A stretch of 64,000 bases of DNA from Escherichia phage vB_EcoM_P54, in sequence record PV390658.1; one strand, given 5' to 3'. This document shows, piece after piece, positions 1 to 55,490 of this stretch. The stretch's first letter is position 1; every line of letters starts with the position of its first letter. Below the pieces are notes generated by a model, which made no database searches, was not told where the DNA came from, and worked only from the letters and a program-made list of their open reading frames with translations. The position numbers and the translations under genes are program-made.

Positions 1-1851
1 ACCTCTACAGATATGGAAGAATGGCTCTTCTAAGTCCTGCTTCTCAAATGGTGAGATGTCTGCTGCAACATTCATATGGAAACTGTTTGTAAAATATTCC
101 TTATCAGAAACGCCTTTGATAACGCCAAACATATCTCTGAACTGTTTTAGCTGAGTTCCACACAATGACTCTGCTGGAGTGCCATATACTGCATACAGGA
201 AGCCATCTTCATTCTTAAACTCTTCAGTTTTCATGTTAATGTATGCCAGAACATCGTATGCAAAACTAGAACTTCCAACTTCATGAAGTCGTTTACCTTC
301 AGCAAGAACAGATAGTTCATCAAGCGCAGTAACCCCAAAAGAAGCTGTGAAGGACTTCACGATATCCCAACCAACCTTGTCAGTAGGTTTCTTAGTCCCT
401 TTGTACAGACCACCTTGTGTGAATGCAAGAGGGTTAGAACTTGCTGGCATATTAGCAATCATTTCGTAGCGTTTCTTGTGGAAGCTGCGAATCATCTCTA
501 GGTACTTATCAAGCTCTTTCCAGAAATCTAAACCATTCTCTTTAGAATACTGGTAAATCATTGGCAAGTTCAAAGATACAGCACCAATGTTAGCACGTCC
601 AACGTAGAACTCTTCTCCATTCTCGTTAAGATATGGGGATAAGAAAGCTCTGCAACCCATCGGTGAAATTACCTTGCCAGAACGCTCAAAAGCCTCTGCT
701 ACAGCACCATGACCAGATACACTTAAGAAGTCTGGATACATTGCTTTAGAGCAACACTCAATAGCTTTACTGTACAGTTGGCCTTGACAGATATTCTCAT
801 TGTGTCTCTTCTGGTCATGAATATAAACCAGTTTAGGGAATACAACAGGCTTCTTGCTCTTACCTTGTCCATTCATGCGAACATCAAGAATGGTGTTTGC
901 AATCATGTATTGTAGTCGGTTGTCTTCATTAGACATGTCTGAGTCAAGTAAACCAAATGTTAAAGTTGTGAATGCGAAATCACCACGGCTACAAGGTACA
1001 GTGTTTAGCTTCATCTCTAGTGACTGGAAGCCCTGAGTTAATTCAAGCTGTAGCTGCTCCATGACATAATTATGGTAATGTTCTTTAGGAATACCGTAAG
1101 ATGCTGCTTTCTCAGCATGATAGCGTAGAGACTTCTTAGCATACGGTACAAGCACCTTATCAATCTCTGCTAAAGTAAAACCACCAAATTGCTGTGCAGT
1201 TGCTGAAAGAACTACATCACCGATAACTTGTAAGGCTGACAGTACAGACTTCGGTTCACAGTATTCGATGCCAGACATTTCAAAACCACCTTTCAGTACT
1301 TTACCAATGTCAAACAGGCAACAGTTGATACCACCAAAAATTAGGTCTCTTAAGTCATGGATGTAGATAAACCCTTTTTCAATGGCTTCGAGTTCCTCTG
1401 GTGTTAAATGGTATTGTTTAAAGATTTCTTTAGTCAGATAGCCACGAATAATTGAACCTTTTGTAGAAATTAAACTGCTGTCAAAGTTAGCATTTTCACG
1501 GTCACCTAAGAAGAGTGTGTCTTTAGTCTTTTGGTAAAGCTCATCCCAATTTTGAGCAACCTCTTTACGGTAATTTCTATATGTTGAGTAAGACTCATAA
1601 ATCTCGTGATTGACTTCTGCCAAAGCACCCTCAACAATACTGTGAATGTCATTTACCGAGATGAGCAAATTATTCTGCTTAGTGGACTTTACCAGAATCC
1701 TCATAAATGCTGACTCAAGAGCTTGGGTAACATCTGGTGGAAGTTCTTTATACCCAACCCTGTTAGCTGACTTAGTTACTGCTGCTAAAACTTTTTTGAT
1801 ATCAGGTTCTTCAAGTGAGCCATTCTTTTTAATAATCTGTACTTTGTTCAT
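1..1851 (-). CDS. nrdD: anaerobic ribonucleoside-triphosphate reductase NrdD (class III), N-terminal ~617 codons; 3' end lies beyond the window start
   Basis: Minus-strand frame open from ATG at 1851..1849 to the window edge, so absent from the ORF track. My translation starts MNKVQIIKKNGSLEEPDIKKVLAAV (ATP-cone) and near the edge reads YFTNSFHMNVAADISPFEK, matching the T4 NrdD segment WYTNSFHVSVEENITPFEK as I recall it. Confidence 0.8.
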   Translation of the reverse strand, partial: MNKVQIIKKNGSLEEPDIKKVLAAVTKSANRVGYKELPPDVTQALESAFMRILVKSTKQNNLLISVNDIHSIVEGALAEVNHEIYESYSTYRNYRKEVAQNWDELYQKTKDTLFLGDRENANFDSSLISTKGSIIRGYLTKEIFKQYHLTPEELEAIEKGFIYIHDLRDLIFGGINCCLFDIGKVLKGGFEMSGIEYCEPKSVLSALQVIGDVVLSATAQQFGGFTLAEIDKVLVPYAKKSLRYHAEKAASYGIPKEHYHNYVMEQLQLELTQGFQSLEMKLNTVPCSRGDFAFTTLTFGLLDSDMSNEDNRLQYMIANTILDVRMNGQGKSKKPVVFPKLVYIHDQKRHNENICQGQLYSKAIECCSKAMYPDFLSVSGHGAVAEAFERSGKVISPMGCRAFLSPYLNENGEEFYVGRANIGAVSLNLPMIYQYSKENGLDFWKELDKYLEMIRSFHKKRYEMIANMPASSNPLAFTQGGLYKGTKKPTDKVGWDIVKSFTASFGVTALDELSVLAEGKRLHEVGSSSFAYDVLAYINMKTEEFKNEDGFLYAVYGTPAESLCGTQLKQFRDMFGVIKGVSDKEYFTNSFHMNVAADISPFEKQDLEEPFFHICRG

Positions 1852-15047: not shown

Positions 15048-17747
15048 ATGGAAAACGTAGATTTTAAAAACTTACATTTAGTTGGTGATACAGAAACTGA
15101 TGGTTTACTCCTTGAGTTCACTAAGGTGCACGTAATGGCTTTCGCAGACTATAAATCTGACGACGAAGAGCCACCTGTATGGGTCTTTACAGATGAACCT
15201 ATCCTCGGTCACAAGTATACCAAGTACATTAAGGGTGGTTTGCGTGAAGGTATTGAGTTTGCGTTAAAGGCAAAACGACTTTGCATCCATAATGGTTTAG
15301 GATATGACTGGTGGGTTTTCAATCACATTGCACCTGATTTGTGGAACTTTGATAATCCAAAGTGTAAGCCGTGGAGTAATTTCTTTCAGGATTCTCTTAT
15401 CCAGTCTCGTGTTCAATGGATGGATAGACCAACTCCAAAAGGCTATAAAGGTGCTCATGGCTTGGCAGCATGGGGTGCTCGTGTTGGTGTCCGTAAACCA
15501 GAGATTGAACATTGGGGTGTGTGGAATGCAGAAATCTTCACTCGTGTTGTGGAAGATATCCGTATTAACGCCAAAACTAAACGTGCACTGGATAATGAAT
15601 ATCTCAAGCTGAAGAAGTGTGGCGTAGATACTTATGAAACCTACATGCGAGCTAAAGAAACATCTTTCTGGATGAGTCAACAAGCTATCAATGGTTGGAA
15701 AGCTGATAAAGAGCTTATGGAGTTCCATGTAAAGGAACTTGACAAGTTGACTAATGAGCTTGCTTCAGAAGTTGAACCACATCTTCCTCCAACTATTAAG
15801 ACCAAAGGTAAAGTCACTGGAGAAGAATTTGCAAAAGCTTGGAATGAGTATGTTGAAGCATTCGGTCATGCAGATGGACTGAAGAGAATTACTAAGTACC
15901 CTAAGACAAAGTATCGTCAGCAGGTACGTAATGGTGAGATGCAGACATATGAAATCAAGCCATTTGGTAAACCAACTACCAAGATTTTTAACATTGAAAA
16001 GCGGAATTGCTATACACCAACCAACTCTGTAACTGGTGAAGAGTACAAGGAAGGCTTTGTAGCAATGAAGGATGCTCGTGCAATTTGCAATGAGTTGAAT
16101 GCAAAGATTGGTAAGAAGTGCAAAGACTGGAAGCCAGTAAAAACAGTTAAAACTGTGAAGTACTATAACAGCCATGTTGTTAACCACTTTGAGCTTGAGT
16201 CAAGTCGCTACACAGGTTTGATTGATGCACCATATACACCAATTGAGTTCGAAGTTTCTCGTATGACTCAGGTAGCAGTTGTTAAAGACTACTTGAAATC
16301 AGTTGGTTGGATTCCAGATGACTGGAACTATAAGAAAGACTCTGATGGTCGTCCTGTTAAGGTTTGTCGCTTCAAAGACAACAAAAAGATGATTACAAAA
16401 CATCCTAAGTGGGATGAGATGGTGGAACGGTGTGGTTTGAGTTATGTTGAACACGAAGGTGTCCAGTACATTGAACATAACTGGTCTGTGAAGAAGTACA
16501 CAGATTTGCTTGAGCCTTGCTTAATCCGTACTTCACCAAAACTTACTGAATCATCTTATGATACAATTGAAGGTGAGCTTGGACAGAAGATTGCGAAATA
16601 CTATACTTTGATGCACCGACGCAGAACTATTGAGAACTCAAAGGATGATGAAAAAGGTTGGTTGAACCAGATTCGTCCTGACGGTCGCCTTAGTGCTGGT
16701 GCAATGGTGTTTGGTACTTCAACTGGACGTATGACACAGTATGGTATTGTAAACGTACCGTCTGGTGCTGCTGTCTATGGGGAACCAATGAGGGCAGTGT
16801 GGATTTGTGAAGAAGGTACTAACGTTGTCTCTGTAGACATGAACTCAGCCCAGCTAGTTCTTCTTTGTAACTTTATGGGTGACAAAGACTTCACTAAAGC
16901 GGTAACGCAAGGTAAAGAAGAGATTGAGTTTATTCGTCAAGAAGATGGACGCTATTACTGCAAACATTTTGATGAGTACCTCAACCCAGAGATTGATAAG
17001 TACCTTCGCTATGACTCTGAGAATGACCTTTACGTTGTCTATTCAGGGACTGATGCACACACACTGAACAGTATTTACTTTAGCTTGAATGATGAGCAGG
17101 ATATCTTGACTTGTCGAGCTACTCAGGATGAGAACCTTCTCCATGAGATTAGCAAAGGTCGTAAGAAAGCTAAGAATGGTATCTATGCACTGCTGTTCGG
17201 TGCAGGTGATGAGAAGTTTGCTAAGACAATTAAGGCTGCAACTACTCAGGAAGGTGCACTGACTAAGCAGACTTACTTTATCCGTTTGCCTAAGATTAAG
17301 AAGCTGCTAGATGACTTGGAAGCTGACTACAAAGCAACTAAGAAGGCACTTGAAGAGGTGTTTGGTAAGACCGCTGCAATCTCTAAAGGGGGTTTTGTAA
17401 AGGTTGCTGGAGCTTGGTTGTGGTGTAAATCTCCACACAAACTGTTGAACTATCTTTTGATGGGTTCAGAGGCTCAGATTCAAAATGAGGCGATTAACCT
17501 TGCTTGTCGTCGTATGATTGACGAAGGTTTGATGAAGTTGAATGGTCGTCAACCAGCTATTGGTGCTCGTTTGCTCTGCGCATATCACGACGAGACGAGT
17601 TGGGAATGTCCAGAGAGTATGACGGCAGATGTGAAAGCAGTTACTGACTGGTATTATGGGCAAGCTTCTAAAAACTTAGGTCTTAAGAAAGAAACGCTTG
17701 TTACAGGCACTGGTAAGGTTGGCAAAAGCTGGCTTGAAGTACACTAA
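15048..17747 (+). CDS. DNA polymerase, family A, with 3'-5' exonuclease domain
   Basis: Exo I motif VGDTETDGL; motif B-like KNGIYALLFGAG; motif C-like YHDETSWECPE; start set at ATG 15048 (MENVDF) behind a GAGGGAG RBS rather than track start 15018. Confidence 0.9.
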   Translation: MENVDFKNLHLVGDTETDGLLLEFTKVHVMAFADYKSDDEEPPVWVFTDEPILGHKYTKYIKGGLREGIEFALKAKRLCIHNGLGYDWWVFNHIAPDLWNFDNPKCKPWSNFFQDSLIQSRVQWMDRPTPKGYKGAHGLAAWGARVGVRKPEIEHWGVWNAEIFTRVVEDIRINAKTKRALDNEYLKLKKCGVDTYETYMRAKETSFWMSQQAINGWKADKELMEFHVKELDKLTNELASEVEPHLPPTIKTKGKVTGEEFAKAWNEYVEAFGHADGLKRITKYPKTKYRQQVRNGEMQTYEIKPFGKPTTKIFNIEKRNCYTPTNSVTGEEYKEGFVAMKDARAICNELNAKIGKKCKDWKPVKTVKTVKYYNSHVVNHFELESSRYTGLIDAPYTPIEFEVSRMTQVAVVKDYLKSVGWIPDDWNYKKDSDGRPVKVCRFKDNKKMITKHPKWDEMVERCGLSYVEHEGVQYIEHNWSVKKYTDLLEPCLIRTSPKLTESSYDTIEGELGQKIAKYYTLMHRRRTIENSKDDEKGWLNQIRPDGRLSAGAMVFGTSTGRMTQYGIVNVPSGAAVYGEPMRAVWICEEGTNVVSVDMNSAQLVLLCNFMGDKDFTKAVTQGKEEIEFIRQEDGRYYCKHFDEYLNPEIDKYLRYDSENDLYVVYSGTDAHTLNSIYFSLNDEQDILTCRATQDENLLHEISKGRKKAKNGIYALLFGAGDEKFAKTIKAATTQEGALTKQTYFIRLPKIKKLLDDLEADYKATKKALEEVFGKTAAISKGGFVKVAGAWLWCKSPHKLLNYLLMGSEAQIQNEAINLACRRMIDEGLMKLNGRQPAIGARLLCAYHDETSWECPESMTADVKAVTDWYYGQASKNLGLKKETLVTGTGKVGKSWLEVH

Positions 17748-17763
17748 TTAGTATTGACAAGGT

Positions 17764-17797
17764 GCTCATGGAAGAGTACCTTATACTATATCTTGTA
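17764..17797 (+). promoter_or_regulatory. putative promoter with TTGACAAGGTG box upstream of the small-gene cluster
   Basis: TTGACAAGGTG at 17764-17774; TATACT 22 nt downstream. Confidence 0.4.
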
Positions 17798-17808
17798 TAG
17801 GAGGTCAC

Positions 17809-18027
17809 ATGACACTTTCAGAGATTGAAGTTCAGTTGCAATGTGCAGGTTATTCTCAAAAAGAGATTGAAGGGATGTTTATTGTTCTTTGCAGTAGCTG
17901 TAGGAATTTGAAGGTAAACCCTGAAGTTCTACGTAGAGTAGATATCTTTATTGCTGGAGATAAAATCGCAAAAGATAAGACAGGCTACTTAAAAGGTGAG
18001 CGTGTAAATATTGAGAGTTTACTATGA
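17809..18027 (+). CDS. small protein, paralog A of a tandem pair (72 aa)
   Basis: GGAGG RBS; shares MTL start and C-terminus DGKIAKDKTGYLKGERVNIESLL with paralog B. Confidence 0.5.
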   Translation: MTLSEIEVQLQCAGYSQKEIEGMFIVLCSSCRNLKVNPEVLRRVDIFIAGDKIAKDKTGYLKGERVNIESLL

Positions 18028-18233
18028 GCCACCGTGGAAGAACCCATGCAGCGATGATGAAAGGTGCTTCAAAGGAAACTATCAAGAACCGTAAGCAGAA
18101 GTTGTTTGAGAGAATGAACAGGTTAATTGACAATTCATCTCTTTCAGGTTCTGAGAAGGTTTTCTTGAAAGGTAATCTGAAAAGCATTGCACAAGAACTT
18201 ATTGATATTGAATATTGGAGACATCAAAAATGA
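18024..18233 (+). CDS. small basic protein (69 aa) between the paralogs
   Basis: ORF track; start overlaps the stop of the upstream gene. Confidence 0.4.
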   Translation: MSHRGRTHAAMMKGASKETIKNRKQKLFERMNRLIDNSSLSGSEKVFLKGNLKSIAQELIDIEYWRHQK

Positions 18234-18448
18234 CACTTGCAGACGTTATTCAGCAACTTCACGATAATTGCTACACTCCTGAGTTGATTCAAGAGATGCT
18301 TATTGTGGTGATGCCTAGTAAGTTCTTAAAAGGTTTTAATCGTGAGGCTTTAAAGGTCGCACATATCCTTATCGTTGACGGTAAGATTGCAAGAGACCGT
18401 ACAGGTGTTCTTAAGGGTGAACGCATTGATATCTTGGAATTGTTATGA
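18230..18448 (+). CDS. small protein, paralog B of a tandem pair (72 aa)
   Basis: Start refined to ATG 18230 (MTLADVIQQL) with GGAGA RBS; C-terminus DGKIARDRTGVLKGERIDILELL. Confidence 0.5.
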   Translation: MTLADVIQQLHDNCYTPELIQEMLIVVMPSKFLKGFNREALKVAHILIVDGKIARDRTGVLKGERIDILELL

Positions 18449-18605
18449 ATAGGTTATATAGTCTCTGGGGAAGGATGGGTAAAGACTCTGATTGGAACCT
18501 ACTAAAAACAAACGTAAAAAGTAATGAGATAGCGTACTACAAAATTCATTACTACAAAACTTTCAGAGAGCTTGAGTATCGTGAACAACAGACAGGAGAA
18601 GTATT

Positions 18606-18842
18606 ATGTGGAAATCAGTAATTGTGCTTGGTGTTATTTTTCTAGCTGGCTGCAACCCTTCTTATGAAGATAAAAATGCTTCTTATAGCCTCCCACCAGA
18701 GATGCAAGATTGCAAAGTCTATAAGTTGCATGGTGATGCCATAAGTAGAGATATTGTTGTTGTCAGATGTCCAAACTCTCAAACAACAACATCTTATAGT
18801 TATGGAAAAAATGGTCAATCACACACTACGGTTATTGAGTGA
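18606..18842 (+). CDS. putative lipoprotein (78 aa)
   Basis: Signal peptide MWKSVIVLGVIFLAGC with lipobox LAGC. Confidence 0.5.
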   Translation: MWKSVIVLGVIFLAGCNPSYEDKNASYSLPPEMQDCKVYKLHGDAISRDIVVVRCPNSQTTTSYSYGKNGQSHTTVIE

Positions 18843-18852
18843 GGTTTTCACG

Positions 18853-19059
18853 ATGGAAGTCCTAGTAAACTATATCTATTGTTATGATGTTGTTCACTCC
18901 ACTACAACCGTAGCTCAACGTAACCCAATTGTCCCACGAGAAGGTGAATTGGTTCGCATTGAGGGTTGGACTTACACTGTGGAAAGTATCATTCATAAGT
19001 TTGATGTTGCTGGTGATGTTCAAGTTATCGACGTAGAGATTGGTGGTAAGAGAAAATGA
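18853..19059 (+). CDS. hypothetical protein (~68 aa)
   Basis: ORF track 18754..19059 overlaps the lipoprotein gene; internal ATG 18853 has a GAGG RBS. Confidence 0.4.
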   Translation: MEVLVNYIYCYDVVHSTTTVAQRNPIVPREGELVRIEGWTYTVESIIHKFDVAGDVQVIDVEIGGKRK

Positions 19060-19215
19060 AACCTAAGCAAACAATGACAGATGCAACCTTCACAGTACAC
19101 AGCTTCGAAAGGTTGCACATCAAAGATACAAAAGATACACCAAAATGCGTTGTACATTTTATTAAAAGGAGTAGTAACATGTCCTATATGAAATCTGACA
19201 AAGGCAATAGCACAA

Positions 19216-19407
19216 ATGAATAAAGAAGACAAGCATAAAAATGCTGTACGGACTCCTGATGGAAAGGTTCAATCCTTCATCCTGACAGTTGGTGGAAAGC
19301 CGTTTCGTTGCCACTGCGGAGCAAACTGTTTTCATAAACCAGATAAAAATGACTTAGAGCTTTACGCATGTAATGCTTGTAATACTTGGTATCACTCAGA
19401 GGAATAA
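19216..19407 (+). CDS. small Cys-rich zinc-ribbon-like protein (63 aa)
   Basis: CHCGANCFH ... CNACNTW cysteine/histidine pairs. Confidence 0.4.
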   Translation: MNKEDKHKNAVRTPDGKVQSFILTVGGKPFRCHCGANCFHKPDKNDLELYACNACNTWYHSEE

Positions 19408-19408
19408 A

Positions 19409-20512
19409 ATGACAATACTGTACAAACAAAATAAAGACGGCTCTTTTAACGTCTGGTCATGCGTTGCTGTAGGTGACAAAGTTATTACAACCTACGGTAA
19501 AGAAAATGGCAAGATGATGTTTGAAGAGTACACAGCAGAACCTAAAAACATCGGTAAAAAGAATGAGCGTAACGCTGAACAGCAAGCTCTCTTTGAAGTT
19601 GCTGCTAAGTATAAAAAGCAGGTTGACCGTAAAGGCTACGCTTACACAAAAGAGTCTGCACAGAATACTGAGAAGGTAGGTGTACAGCTTGCTCATGATG
19701 CTGCAAAGGTTAGTCATGCAAAGTATCTGAAGTTCCCTGCTGATGCTCAACCGAAACTTGATGGTGTCCGTTGTAGGATTTCAAGGCACTTGAGTATTGG
19801 CAGTGTATTTACAGCATATTCTCGTGAGAATACTGTTTACAAAATCCCTACTGAACTAATACCTGACATTATGGCAATGTTAAGGCTCCACAAAGATGTT
19901 GATGAATTTGATGGAGAGATTTATGCTCATGGGTGGGACTTAGAAGATATCGTCTCCATGATTAAAAATGAAGACAATCCTGACAGACACTTGCTCAAGT
20001 TTTACTGGTACGATATCTGTGACAGTACTAAGACGTGGCCTGAGCGTAGAGATATTATTGAGACTTCACCATTGAATGACTTTAGAGATGGCTGTAAAGT
20101 TGTTCCTGTTAAGTCTCGTCGTGTAAATTCTTGGGAAGAGTTTGATGAAGCCCATGATAAGTGGGTTGAAGCTCAGTTTGAAGGTGCAATGTACCGTTCA
20201 ATCTCTGAAGACTCCTTCTATGAGTGTTGTCACCGTTCATACTTCTTGATTAAGCACAAGAAGATGCACACTGAAGAGTTTAAAGTGACTGGTGTAAAGA
20301 CTGATAAGCGTGGTCATGGCAAGTTCGTTGTAGAGACTCTTCCTAACGTCTTTGTAGATGTCTCATGGAAGACTACTCATGAGAAGAAACAGTATCTTGC
20401 TGAGCATCCTGAAGAGTTTATCGGGAAACCTTTAACGGTTCAGTTCCAGAAGATGACTCGTAAGGGGTCTTTACAGTTCCCTGTTGGGCTGGTTATACGA
20501 GATTATGAATAA
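19409..20512 (+). CDS. ATP-dependent DNA ligase
   Basis: Adenylation motif I KLDGVR; size and layout like T7-type ligases; start set at ATG 19409 behind GAGGA. Confidence 0.8.
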   Translation: MTILYKQNKDGSFNVWSCVAVGDKVITTYGKENGKMMFEEYTAEPKNIGKKNERNAEQQALFEVAAKYKKQVDRKGYAYTKESAQNTEKVGVQLAHDAAKVSHAKYLKFPADAQPKLDGVRCRISRHLSIGSVFTAYSRENTVYKIPTELIPDIMAMLRLHKDVDEFDGEIYAHGWDLEDIVSMIKNEDNPDRHLLKFYWYDICDSTKTWPERRDIIETSPLNDFRDGCKVVPVKSRRVNSWEEFDEAHDKWVEAQFEGAMYRSISEDSFYECCHRSYFLIKHKKMHTEEFKVTGVKTDKRGHGKFVVETLPNVFVDVSWKTTHEKKQYLAEHPEEFIGKPLTVQFQKMTRKGSLQFPVGLVIRDYE

Positions 20513-20518
20513 AAGTTG

Positions 20519-20546
20519 TTGACATAGAAAATTTGGTGAGTATACT
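20519..20546 (+). promoter_or_regulatory. sigma70-like promoter (TTGACA-16-TATACT) embedded in an 8 bp inverted repeat
   Basis: TTGACA at 20519-20524, TATACT at 20541-20546; GGTGAGTA (20535-20542) pairs with TACTCACC (20566-20573). Confidence 0.5.
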
Positions 20547-20619
20547 GAGCAGCATAAACCAACGGGTACTCACCAGCATCACTTAAGAGTCTTCTAAGAA
20601 GGTTTTTAAGTGATGCTCG

Positions 20620-54909: not shown

Positions 54910-54997
54910 TGGTGTGCCGTGTAGGAGTCGAACCTACCGAGTCTCAATGACAAGGGATTTACAGTCCCCACCGCTACCATCTACGGGATAACGACAC
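54910..54997 (-). tRNA. tRNA-Tyr (anticodon GUA), long variable arm
   Basis: 88 nt; anticodon stem GGGA/TCCC with loop CTGTAAA; long extra arm; T-arm GTAGGTTCGACTCCTAC; CCA encoded. Confidence 0.7.
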
Positions 54998-55006
54998 ATT
55001 TAAATT

Positions 55007-55083
55007 TGGCGGTTAGTCAGGGATTCGAACCCTGTGCCATTCGCTTAACAGGCGACCGCACATACCTTATGTGCTTCCTAACC
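55007..55083 (-). tRNA. tRNA-Asn (anticodon GUU)
   Basis: T-arm CAGGGTTCGAATCCCTG, D-stem GCAC/GTGC, anticodon loop CTGTTAA, CCA encoded. Confidence 0.7.
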
Positions 55084-55160
55084 TTAATACATTGCCAGAC
55101 CGTGTTTTTTCTTTTATCCGCAAAAAGTATTTTGTTGCTGAATACGGTCTTCTGCAAAAT

Positions 55161-55237
55161 TGGAGGCGGGTGCAGGAGTCGAACCTGCCGATACCATGCT
55201 AATGAGACATGTGAGACGCCCTTTCTCTATACCCGCA
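55161..55237 (-). tRNA. tRNA with anticodon CAU (second copy; Met, initiator or Ile-lysidine type)
   Basis: T-arm GCAGGTTCGACTCCTGC, anticodon stem CATGT/GCATG with loop CTCATTA, CCA encoded. Confidence 0.6.
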
Positions 55238-55328
55238 ATTCTTAATGACCAGACCAAATCTCTTCTTTGTCCGATTTACCTTCAGATGTATAAGATTAAG
55301 TTTGCTGTAATTGGTCTTCTGTCAAAAC

Positions 55329-55406
55329 TGGCGTTCCAGAAGGGATTTGAACCCTCAGATATCCACTTTGAAAGAGTGGTGACTATACCATTTTGTCTAC
55401 TGGAAC
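55329..55406 (-). tRNA. tRNA-Glu (anticodon UUC)
   Basis: Acceptor GTTCCAG/CTGGAAC, T-loop TTCAAAT, anticodon stem CCACT/AGTGG with loop CTTTCAA, CCA encoded. Confidence 0.75.
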
Positions 55407-55413
55407 ATTAATT

Positions 55414-55490
55414 TGGTCTCTGTTGGAGGACTTGAACCTCCGGCCTTACCGCCCCAAACGGAACGCTCTACCAAGCTGAGCTAAACAGAG
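55414..55490 (-). tRNA. tRNA-Pro (anticodon UGG)
   Basis: Acceptor CTCTGTT/AACAGAG, canonical D-arm GCTC-AGCTTGGTA-GAGC, T-arm GGAGGTTCAAGTCCTCC, anticodon loop TTTGGGG, CCA encoded. Confidence 0.75.

Follow-up and report, generated by a model that had tools for sequence, protein, structure and literature searches.

Three small open reading frames (ORFs) are considered here, all located in a 64,000-nucleotide (nt) stretch of DNA from Escherichia phage vB_EcoM_P54 (record PV390658.1), which we refer to throughout as the window. Two of these, ORF D (58 amino acids (aa), 18445..18621, plus strand) and ORF G (55 aa, 19056..19223, plus strand), lie in an array of small genes between the genes for DNA polymerase and DNA ligase. 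The third, ORF J (35 aa, 52080..52187, minus strand), encodes a basic peptide and lies between two transfer RNA (tRNA) genes, within an array of 24 tRNA genes that occupies 49839-55490 on the minus strand. The three had been picked out by eye in an earlier sequence-only reading of the window, which described the first two as plausible, unlisted genes of the early region. We consider it likely that D and G are genuine genes in an early-to-middle array, and that J is a probable micro-gene carried on an inserted cassette.

By its sequence, the window is the genome of a Felix O1-like myovirus of the genus Felixounavirus. Salmonella phage OPT-SAL01 shares 95.6% identity with the stretch 17700-20600, which matches 259 GenBank phage records, nearly all of which are Felixounavirus (Felix O1-like myoviruses, Ounavirinae). 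Homologues of D, G and J were counted by tblastn among 50,697 phage records, and gene order was compared by running every protein of the stretch with tblastn against more than 25 related loci. Frame and selection tests were performed using 16 Ounavirinae haplotypes for D, 12 haplotypes for G and 11 sequences for J (10 of them intact). Scans of IMG/VR contributed just 8 further loci, and word-indexed searches found no homologues of D and G other than close relatives.

ORFs D and G between DNA polymerase and DNA ligase

ORF D begins with an ATG that overlaps the stop codon of the upstream gene as ATGA, and it ends with a TAA at 18619-18621. The frame is open for only five codons upstream of 18445, so this is the sole possible start. 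The sequence-only reading had proposed an ORF of 48 aa at 18474..18620; an ORF is indeed present there, but it is ten residues longer, and the start that had been chosen is an internal ATG, the Met11 codon at 18475..18477 (plus strand). Because this codon encodes Val (GTT/GTC) in the Felix O1, Shy and Michonne alleles, Met11 is not a conserved start. The conserved YSLWGR residues are located upstream of it, and both the PHROG and the tblastn alignments of D begin at residues 1-5. The GGGGAAGG that had been taken for a ribosome-binding site in fact comprises the codons TGG GGA AGG (W-G-R), which belong to the most conserved motif of the protein, YSLWGRMG.

D matches the hidden Markov model (HMM) of phrog_2381 with E=3.2e-22 (residues 1-53 against profile positions 6-59 of 60), and is present in 244 phage records, which take in nearly all Ounavirinae, phi92-like Justusliebigvirus phages (about 50% identity) and a Klebsiella phage (39%). 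Across all 16 haplotypes, stop codons are absent from the sense frame alone. The ratio of nonsynonymous to synonymous polymorphism (pN/pS) is 0.31 in this frame, compared to 1.3-1.7 in four of the other frames and 0.46 in one antisense frame, and the variable sites are distributed 20/17/40 over the three codon positions, a third-position enrichment with p=6e-4. An alignment of 10 divergent members defines a core of about 45 residues with the pattern YSLWGRMG-x3-DW-x2-LK(S/T)NV ... Y-x-KT(F/Y/W)RE(V/L)-x-(Y/F/H)RE, in which R10, G12, D16, Y36, T39 and R41 are invariant. OPT-SAL01, Shy and JH2 carry D as an annotated hypothetical protein, as does the RefSeq record of Felix O1, where it is ORF92 (YP_001504373.1); its locus tag, FelixO1p244, is of a later series, and the original GenBank record has no coding sequence in that frame. 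ORF92 occupies the same place as D, between ORF93 and the lipoprotein gene ORF91, shares the core YSLWGR(V/M)G...DW..L..NV...Y.KT.RE..YREQ, and shows 56% identity by tblastn over residues 1-48. Taken together, the PHROG match, the breadth of records, the signature of selection on a single open frame, the Felix O1 ortholog and the annotation in relatives indicate that D is a genuine small protein gene.

Unlike ORF92, D in the window has no stop codon after REQ, and instead continues into a 10-aa C-terminal extension (QTGEVLCGNQ plus stop, 18589..18621, plus strand) that is specific to the window allele. The extension arose by loss of the TAA: other alleles have CGT GAA CA(A/G) TAA, with the stop right after ...YREQ, where the window has CAA CAG ACAGGAG. 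The reading frame thereby continues through the ribosome-binding site and start of the lipoprotein gene (ATG at 18606), and it is this lost TAA that accounts for the overlap of 16 nt between the two genes; the sequence-only reading had correctly seen that the stop of the first ORF overlaps the lipoprotein start. About 25 records have the window-type 58-aa allele. Ounavirinae as a whole have at least four D alleles, which share 54-70% identity with one another and sit between flanking genes that are 86-92% identical.

The D domain, of about 45 residues, also occurs in phi92 gp205 (Justusliebigvirus), Klebsiella phi1_175008 CDS0236 and the metagenomic protein P0009, at 39-50% identity; these match phrog_2381 with E near 1e-17, and their genomic contexts are unrelated to that of D in the window. 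In phi92 gp205 the domain is N-terminal to a phrog_7812 domain, whereas in the window it stands alone. It forms the C-terminus of the 79-aa CDS0236, and is again C-terminal in P0009 (165 aa), behind a phrog_2510-like domain. The P0009 contigs are short, no Pfam domains were found on them, and the neighbourhood is uninformative. When 1.84 billion representative proteins were searched in full with HMMER, only six true relatives of D were recovered; a repeat protein, P0005, that also appeared in this search was judged spurious. The D family is small and apparently confined to phages.

ORF G overlaps its neighbours at both ends, with an ATGA shared with the stop of gene F and a TAA that falls 3 nt after the ATG of gene H (19216). 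The sequence-only reading had the correct length and the correct overlap of the start with the upstream stop, and placed the ORF at 19057..19222, one position off at either end. G matches the phrog_25478 HMM with E=1.2e-39 (residues 1-51 against profile positions 1-51 of 52), and 34 phage records contain it at 71-96% identity; a further copy, at 44%, is in Citrobacter phage HP1. The sense frame is again the only one open across all 12 haplotypes, with a pN/pS of 0.25 compared to 0.46-1.0 in the other frames; the neighbouring genes F and H gave 0.25 and 0.24, respectively. Variable sites in G are distributed 11/9/22 by codon position (third-position enrichment p=8e-3). The first six residues are kept even in the HP1 homologue, which supports the first ATG as the start, and the C-terminus varies in length, giving proteins of 50-57 aa. 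The orthologs wV8 gp99, JH2 gp066 and Shy_0090 (all phrog_25478) are 81-96% identical to G and likewise lie between F and the zinc-ribbon gene H, whereas HP1_70, the sole distant copy, is in a different place in the array. As with D, the annotations of OPT-SAL01, Shy and JH2 list G as a hypothetical protein. We conclude from these comparisons that G is a genuine small protein gene. Conservation of the reading frames in related phages, which the sequence-only reading had suggested as a check, is thus seen for both ORFs.

G is an optional cassette, with the 7-mer AAATGAA at both of its junctions. In phages without G, gene F is joined to gene H at exactly this 7-mer, and the cassette was probably gained or lost by recombination at the 7-nt microhomology of the gene junctions. 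The gene order around it, pol-(HNH)-(A)-B-C-D-lipoprotein E-F-(G)-H-ligase, with optional genes in brackets, is kept in more than 25 loci. Most gene junctions in the array show ATGA or short overlaps, and no promoter-like or terminator-like site stands out inside it, counts of such sites not being above shuffled expectation. These two features of the array point to one translationally coupled operon. D and G are members of this tightly packed array of small genes, linked through overlapping stop and start codons, and the array is probably transcribed within an early-to-middle replication unit. For Felix O1, genes 96-80 have been described as a single transcription unit, in which the polymerase transcript is detectable within 5 min; ORF95 peaks at 5 min, and ORFs 88, 89, 90, 93 and 96 peak at 25 min (PMC3185647). 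The term 'early region' used in the sequence-only reading is therefore roughly correct, and early-to-middle is the more exact term, as most of the ORFs tested peak at the later time.

Of the neighbouring genes, lipoprotein E (78 aa, 18606..18842, plus strand; phrog_902, Felix O1 ORF91) is a predicted lipoprotein with a signal peptide and the lipobox LAGC. It sits within the replication-gene operon, has a GTG start in the Felix O1-type allele, and is a possible candidate for a superinfection-exclusion-type lipoprotein. Gene F (68 aa, 18853..19059, plus strand; phrog_4427, Felix O1 ORF90) precedes G, and gene H (63 aa, 19216..19407, plus strand; phrog_5768, Felix O1 ORF89) follows it, encoding a four-Cys zinc-ribbon-like protein. 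H directly precedes the ligase gene, and several GenBank records call H 'DNA ligase', apparently by annotation carry-over. Two 72-aa genes on the plus strand, at 17809..18027 (A) and 18230..18448, are paralogs of about 43% identity, both in phrog_4230, and the first of them is found in only some relatives. An HNH homing endonuclease gene lies just after the DNA polymerase gene in many relatives (Felix O1 ORF95, Michonne, SUSP1, LMP34 and dune), and the window has none at that place (compared at 17748..17808). The polymerase-ligase interval is a hotspot of mosaicism, of which individual relatives cover between 19% and 100%. Among the sigma-70-like promoter matches of the region, the best, TTGACA-16-TATACT (11/12), is at 20519..20546 on the plus strand, directly after the ligase stop, and may be the start of the next transcription unit. 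Three records named as 'Staphylococcus phage SA1' and 'Campylobacter phage A132/C3' (GU169904.1, MG065664.1 and MG065656.1) hold Felixounavirus or phi92-like sequence at 88-92% identity, and contamination or chimerism of these entries is the probable cause.

ORF J and its cassette in the tRNA array

In most Felixounavirus genomes, tRNA-Leu(CAA)-ATTTT abuts tRNA-Arg(ACG), with no cassette between the two. The window and about 33 other records (33 by tblastn with J) carry a 109-nt insertion at this place (52090..52198, minus strand), the boundaries of which are directly visible in an alignment of the window with Shy and Sf13 as AGGAGAGCACT-ATG...GGTAA. In the window, the cassette has tRNA-Leu(caa) upstream of it (52204..52281, minus strand) and ends one base before tRNA-Arg(acg) (52014..52089, minus strand). 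Its first bases are a Shine-Dalgarno sequence, AGGAG (52194..52198, minus strand), which is 6 nt before the ATG of J. The last three codons and the stop codon of J are supplied by nt 1-10 of tRNA-Arg, with the TAG being nt 8-10. The sequence-only reading had described a minus-strand ORF of 35 aa at about 52092-52199; its length, its basic character and its ribosome-binding site stand, but the coordinates were some 12 nt too high. The ORF had also been placed between two tRNAs, and these do flank it, but its last 10 nt are inside tRNA-Arg.

J matches the phrog_13848 HMM with E=9.1e-18 (residues 1-35 against profile positions 2-35 of 41). Orthologs from this family, SP116 HB2014_50, S19cd gp27 and D1-2 QGF20838, are 80-100% identical to J and lie in the same tRNA-Leu/tRNA-Arg slot; in many records the sequence is unannotated, and Felix O1 itself has the sequence without an annotation. 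The GGAG of the Shine-Dalgarno sequence is present in 11/11 sequences, with the subsequent bases of the motif varying in a few. A ribosome-binding site, a start codon and an ORF of at least 30 aa occur together in 1.8% of shuffles. Among the six frames, pN/pS is lowest in the sense frame, and codon usage is coding-like, with log-odds of +11 bits. In Shigella phage Sf13, a Mooglevirus, the same slot (148..360 of locus L034) holds a different insert, with a 70-aa Cys-rich basic ORF (gp18, phrog_10765) behind the same TTTTAGGAGA..ATGA leader, and this ORF likewise ends inside tRNA-Arg, running about 50 nt into it. From these features we lean slightly towards J being a translated micro-gene.

Descent of J from Sf13 gp18 by deletion was considered and is not supported, there being no protein similarity between the two. 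We also considered a type I toxin-like membrane peptide, and rejected this as J has no hydrophobic transmembrane segment; its sequence, MSDKSIAKKFRASYLNRRKNKDCEKLYGVLVGKQD, is basic and hydrophilic. The window contains the J cassette only once, and none of the tRNA spacers has a further ORF preceded by a ribosome-binding site. One antisense frame over 52083..52187 is also stop-free, in 10/10 haplotypes, with a pN/pS of 0.70; the A-richness of the sense sequence probably accounts for this. The tRNA array further contains an HNH-type endonuclease ORF of 130 aa (53439..53831, minus strand).

Several observations speak against translation of J. Its pN/pS is 0.50 and its variable sites are distributed 6/7/10 by codon position (p=0.21); selection at the protein level is not demonstrable. 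The frame is open in 10/11 haplotypes, but 22% of substitution permutations also leave it intact, and a 1-nt deletion in an A-run breaks it in SPJ41. As the stop codon is inside tRNA-Arg, processing by RNase P would be expected to leave a non-stop message. Finally, structure prediction places the ribosome-binding site and ATG in a 15-bp stem with the 3' end of the ORF, a stem of which the 5' arm (52182..52196, minus strand) covers the Shine-Dalgarno sequence and the start codon and the 3' arm (52098..52113, minus strand) corresponds to codons 26-30, where the DNA is almost invariant. The predicted minimum free energy of the spacer is -24.1 kcal/mol (z=-2.64), with 2/200 shuffles folding as well. 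This pairing of the two spacer ends raises the possibility, which we regard as doubtful, that J is not a gene at all and that the 109-nt insertion is a structured spacer RNA, freed by RNase P and 3' trimming, in which the frame is incidental. Such an RNA would agree with the location of the stop codon, with the near-neutrality of the J interior at the protein level, with a conservation that is far higher in both stem arms than in the interior, and with the fact that every substitution in the stem preserves pairing. However, these substitutions are all one-sided, giving 0 compensatory pairs, the z value is suggestive at most, and an Rfam scan of the spacer matched only the flanking tRNAs. A structured RNA is also hard to square with a cassette that starts exactly with AGGAG-N6-ATG, with the unrelated Mooglevirus cassette in the same slot that keeps the leader and encodes an ORF, or with the sense frame having coding-like codon usage and a pN/pS below that of the five other frames.

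It is unlikely, in our assessment, that J and its cassette are neutral junk, the decaying remnant of a larger gene or insertion between the two tRNAs that no longer serves as protein or RNA. About 87% of the genus lacks the cassette, the J interior is the most variable stretch of its neighbourhood, and the frameshift in SPJ41 may have parallels, as tblastn matched only residues 7-35 in SWJM-02 and two separate pieces in NBEco005, suggesting similar disruption. All of this would suit a remnant, but homopolymer frameshifts may be sequencing errors, and the ORF is intact in all haplotypes other than one. Moreover, the 3' 45 nt, the ribosome-binding site and the ATG are nearly invariant, while the peptide differs by up to 20% between haplotypes. 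If J is a micro-gene, as we slightly favour, then it would be translated in full only from an unprocessed tRNA precursor, because its ORF ends inside tRNA-Arg. In short, the description as plausible genes holds for D and G, by virtue of conserved frames under purifying selection, but for J the evidence is suggestive and a gene is only possible.

Possible roles and comparison with known systems

No function emerged from the searches made, and several results count against our overall account. Scans of D, G, J and their neighbours with Pfam, NCBIfam and PADLOC gave no matches, and a PDB profile search using the D alignment returned FolD (E=0.033) and antibody light chains, both of which were judged spurious. 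The AlphaFold models are of low confidence: that of D is helical, with helices at 7-11, 13-19 and 26-50 and a predicted local distance difference test score (pLDDT) of 62, and that of G is a beta-hairpin with strands at 13-23 and 29-39 and a pLDDT of 66 (core up to 88). Foldseek comparison of the D and G models with PDB and BFVD gave nothing with E<1. In addition, the reverse-transcription PCR table for Felix O1 covers neighbouring ORFs only, and ORF92, the ortholog of D, is not among them (PMC3185647). The SUKH / SMI1-KNR4 immunity superfamily was considered for D and rejected, with SUKH_5 giving E=0.054 and 13.7 bits against a cutoff of 27, in 1/10 members. In our account, D is a domain of about 45 residues, near-universal in Ounavirinae and probably helical, that exists as several divergent alleles. 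The G protein, like that of J, is basic. We infer that D, G and J encode accessory proteins without enzymatic activity, whose action consists in binding a partner of host or phage origin.

Small early proteins of this kind might inhibit a host immune or housekeeping protein, and we regard it as a tentative possibility, raised by the sequence-only reading, that D and/or G are anti-defence or host-takeover factors. The allelic divergence of D between well-conserved flanking genes, its reuse as a fusion module, the patchy distribution of G as an accessory cassette and the presumed expression of both with an early-to-middle replication unit are consistent with this. On the other side, no likeness to characterised anti-defence or host-takeover families was detected in Pfam, NCBIfam, PDB or Foldseek searches, which did not include a dedicated anti-defence library, and in literature searches on Felixounavirus transcriptomics, anti-defence and small ORFs in tRNA clusters nothing relevant turned up beyond the Felix O1 genome paper; no published link was found. 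A conserved role within the phage itself, in replication for example, would explain the near-universal presence of D in the subfamily and the purifying selection on it at least equally well. The allelic diversity and fusions of D, and the patchiness of G and J, are compatible with roles in host interaction or counter-defence, and the anti-defence reading is a guess. A bolder proposal has two separate parts and is, we think, highly improbable. It holds that the expression of J is tied to tRNA maturation, in that base pairing with the end of the ORF hides the ribosome-binding site and ATG and that the peptide can be completed only on precursors still uncut by RNase P, and that D is a portable targeting module of an uncharacterised counter-defence family. 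If this were true, J would be a read-out or modulator of tRNA-processing capacity in infection, and the D counter-defence family would be common to Ounavirinae and Stephanstirmvirinae.

Overall, these ORFs leave current understanding unchanged. D and G had been called unlisted, which does not hold given their annotation in relatives; all three ORFs, J included, belong to PHROG families of hypothetical proteins that were already known, and the finding is in that sense not new. Its meaning is mostly one of annotation hygiene, in that a 60-aa cutoff hides real genes in this group of phages, and that a start chosen by eye can err, as it did for D, where the most conserved motif was cut off. With its near-universal presence in Ounavirinae and its occurrence as a fusion domain in phi92-like phages, D is a reasonable candidate for functional study. 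The tRNA-slot cassette, with an ORF that ends inside a tRNA, is a small curiosity and the sole mildly unusual feature of the set.

Both parts of this set can be compared with elements of well-studied phages. The tRNA cluster of phage T4 encodes the stable species 1 and species 2 RNAs, and phage T5 has ORFs in its tRNA region. The J cassette resembles these as a short non-tRNA element, co-transcribed in a tRNA array, whose ends are predicted to pair. It differs in that there is no kinship with them in sequence or in Rfam, and in that J has a canonical ribosome-binding site and an ORF. In phage T7, Ocr, Gp0.4 and Gp2 are small early proteins that bind host targets. Homology of our proteins to these was not detected, and the comparison is one of analogy only, in that they share a small size, early-to-middle expression and a lack of enzymatic motifs.

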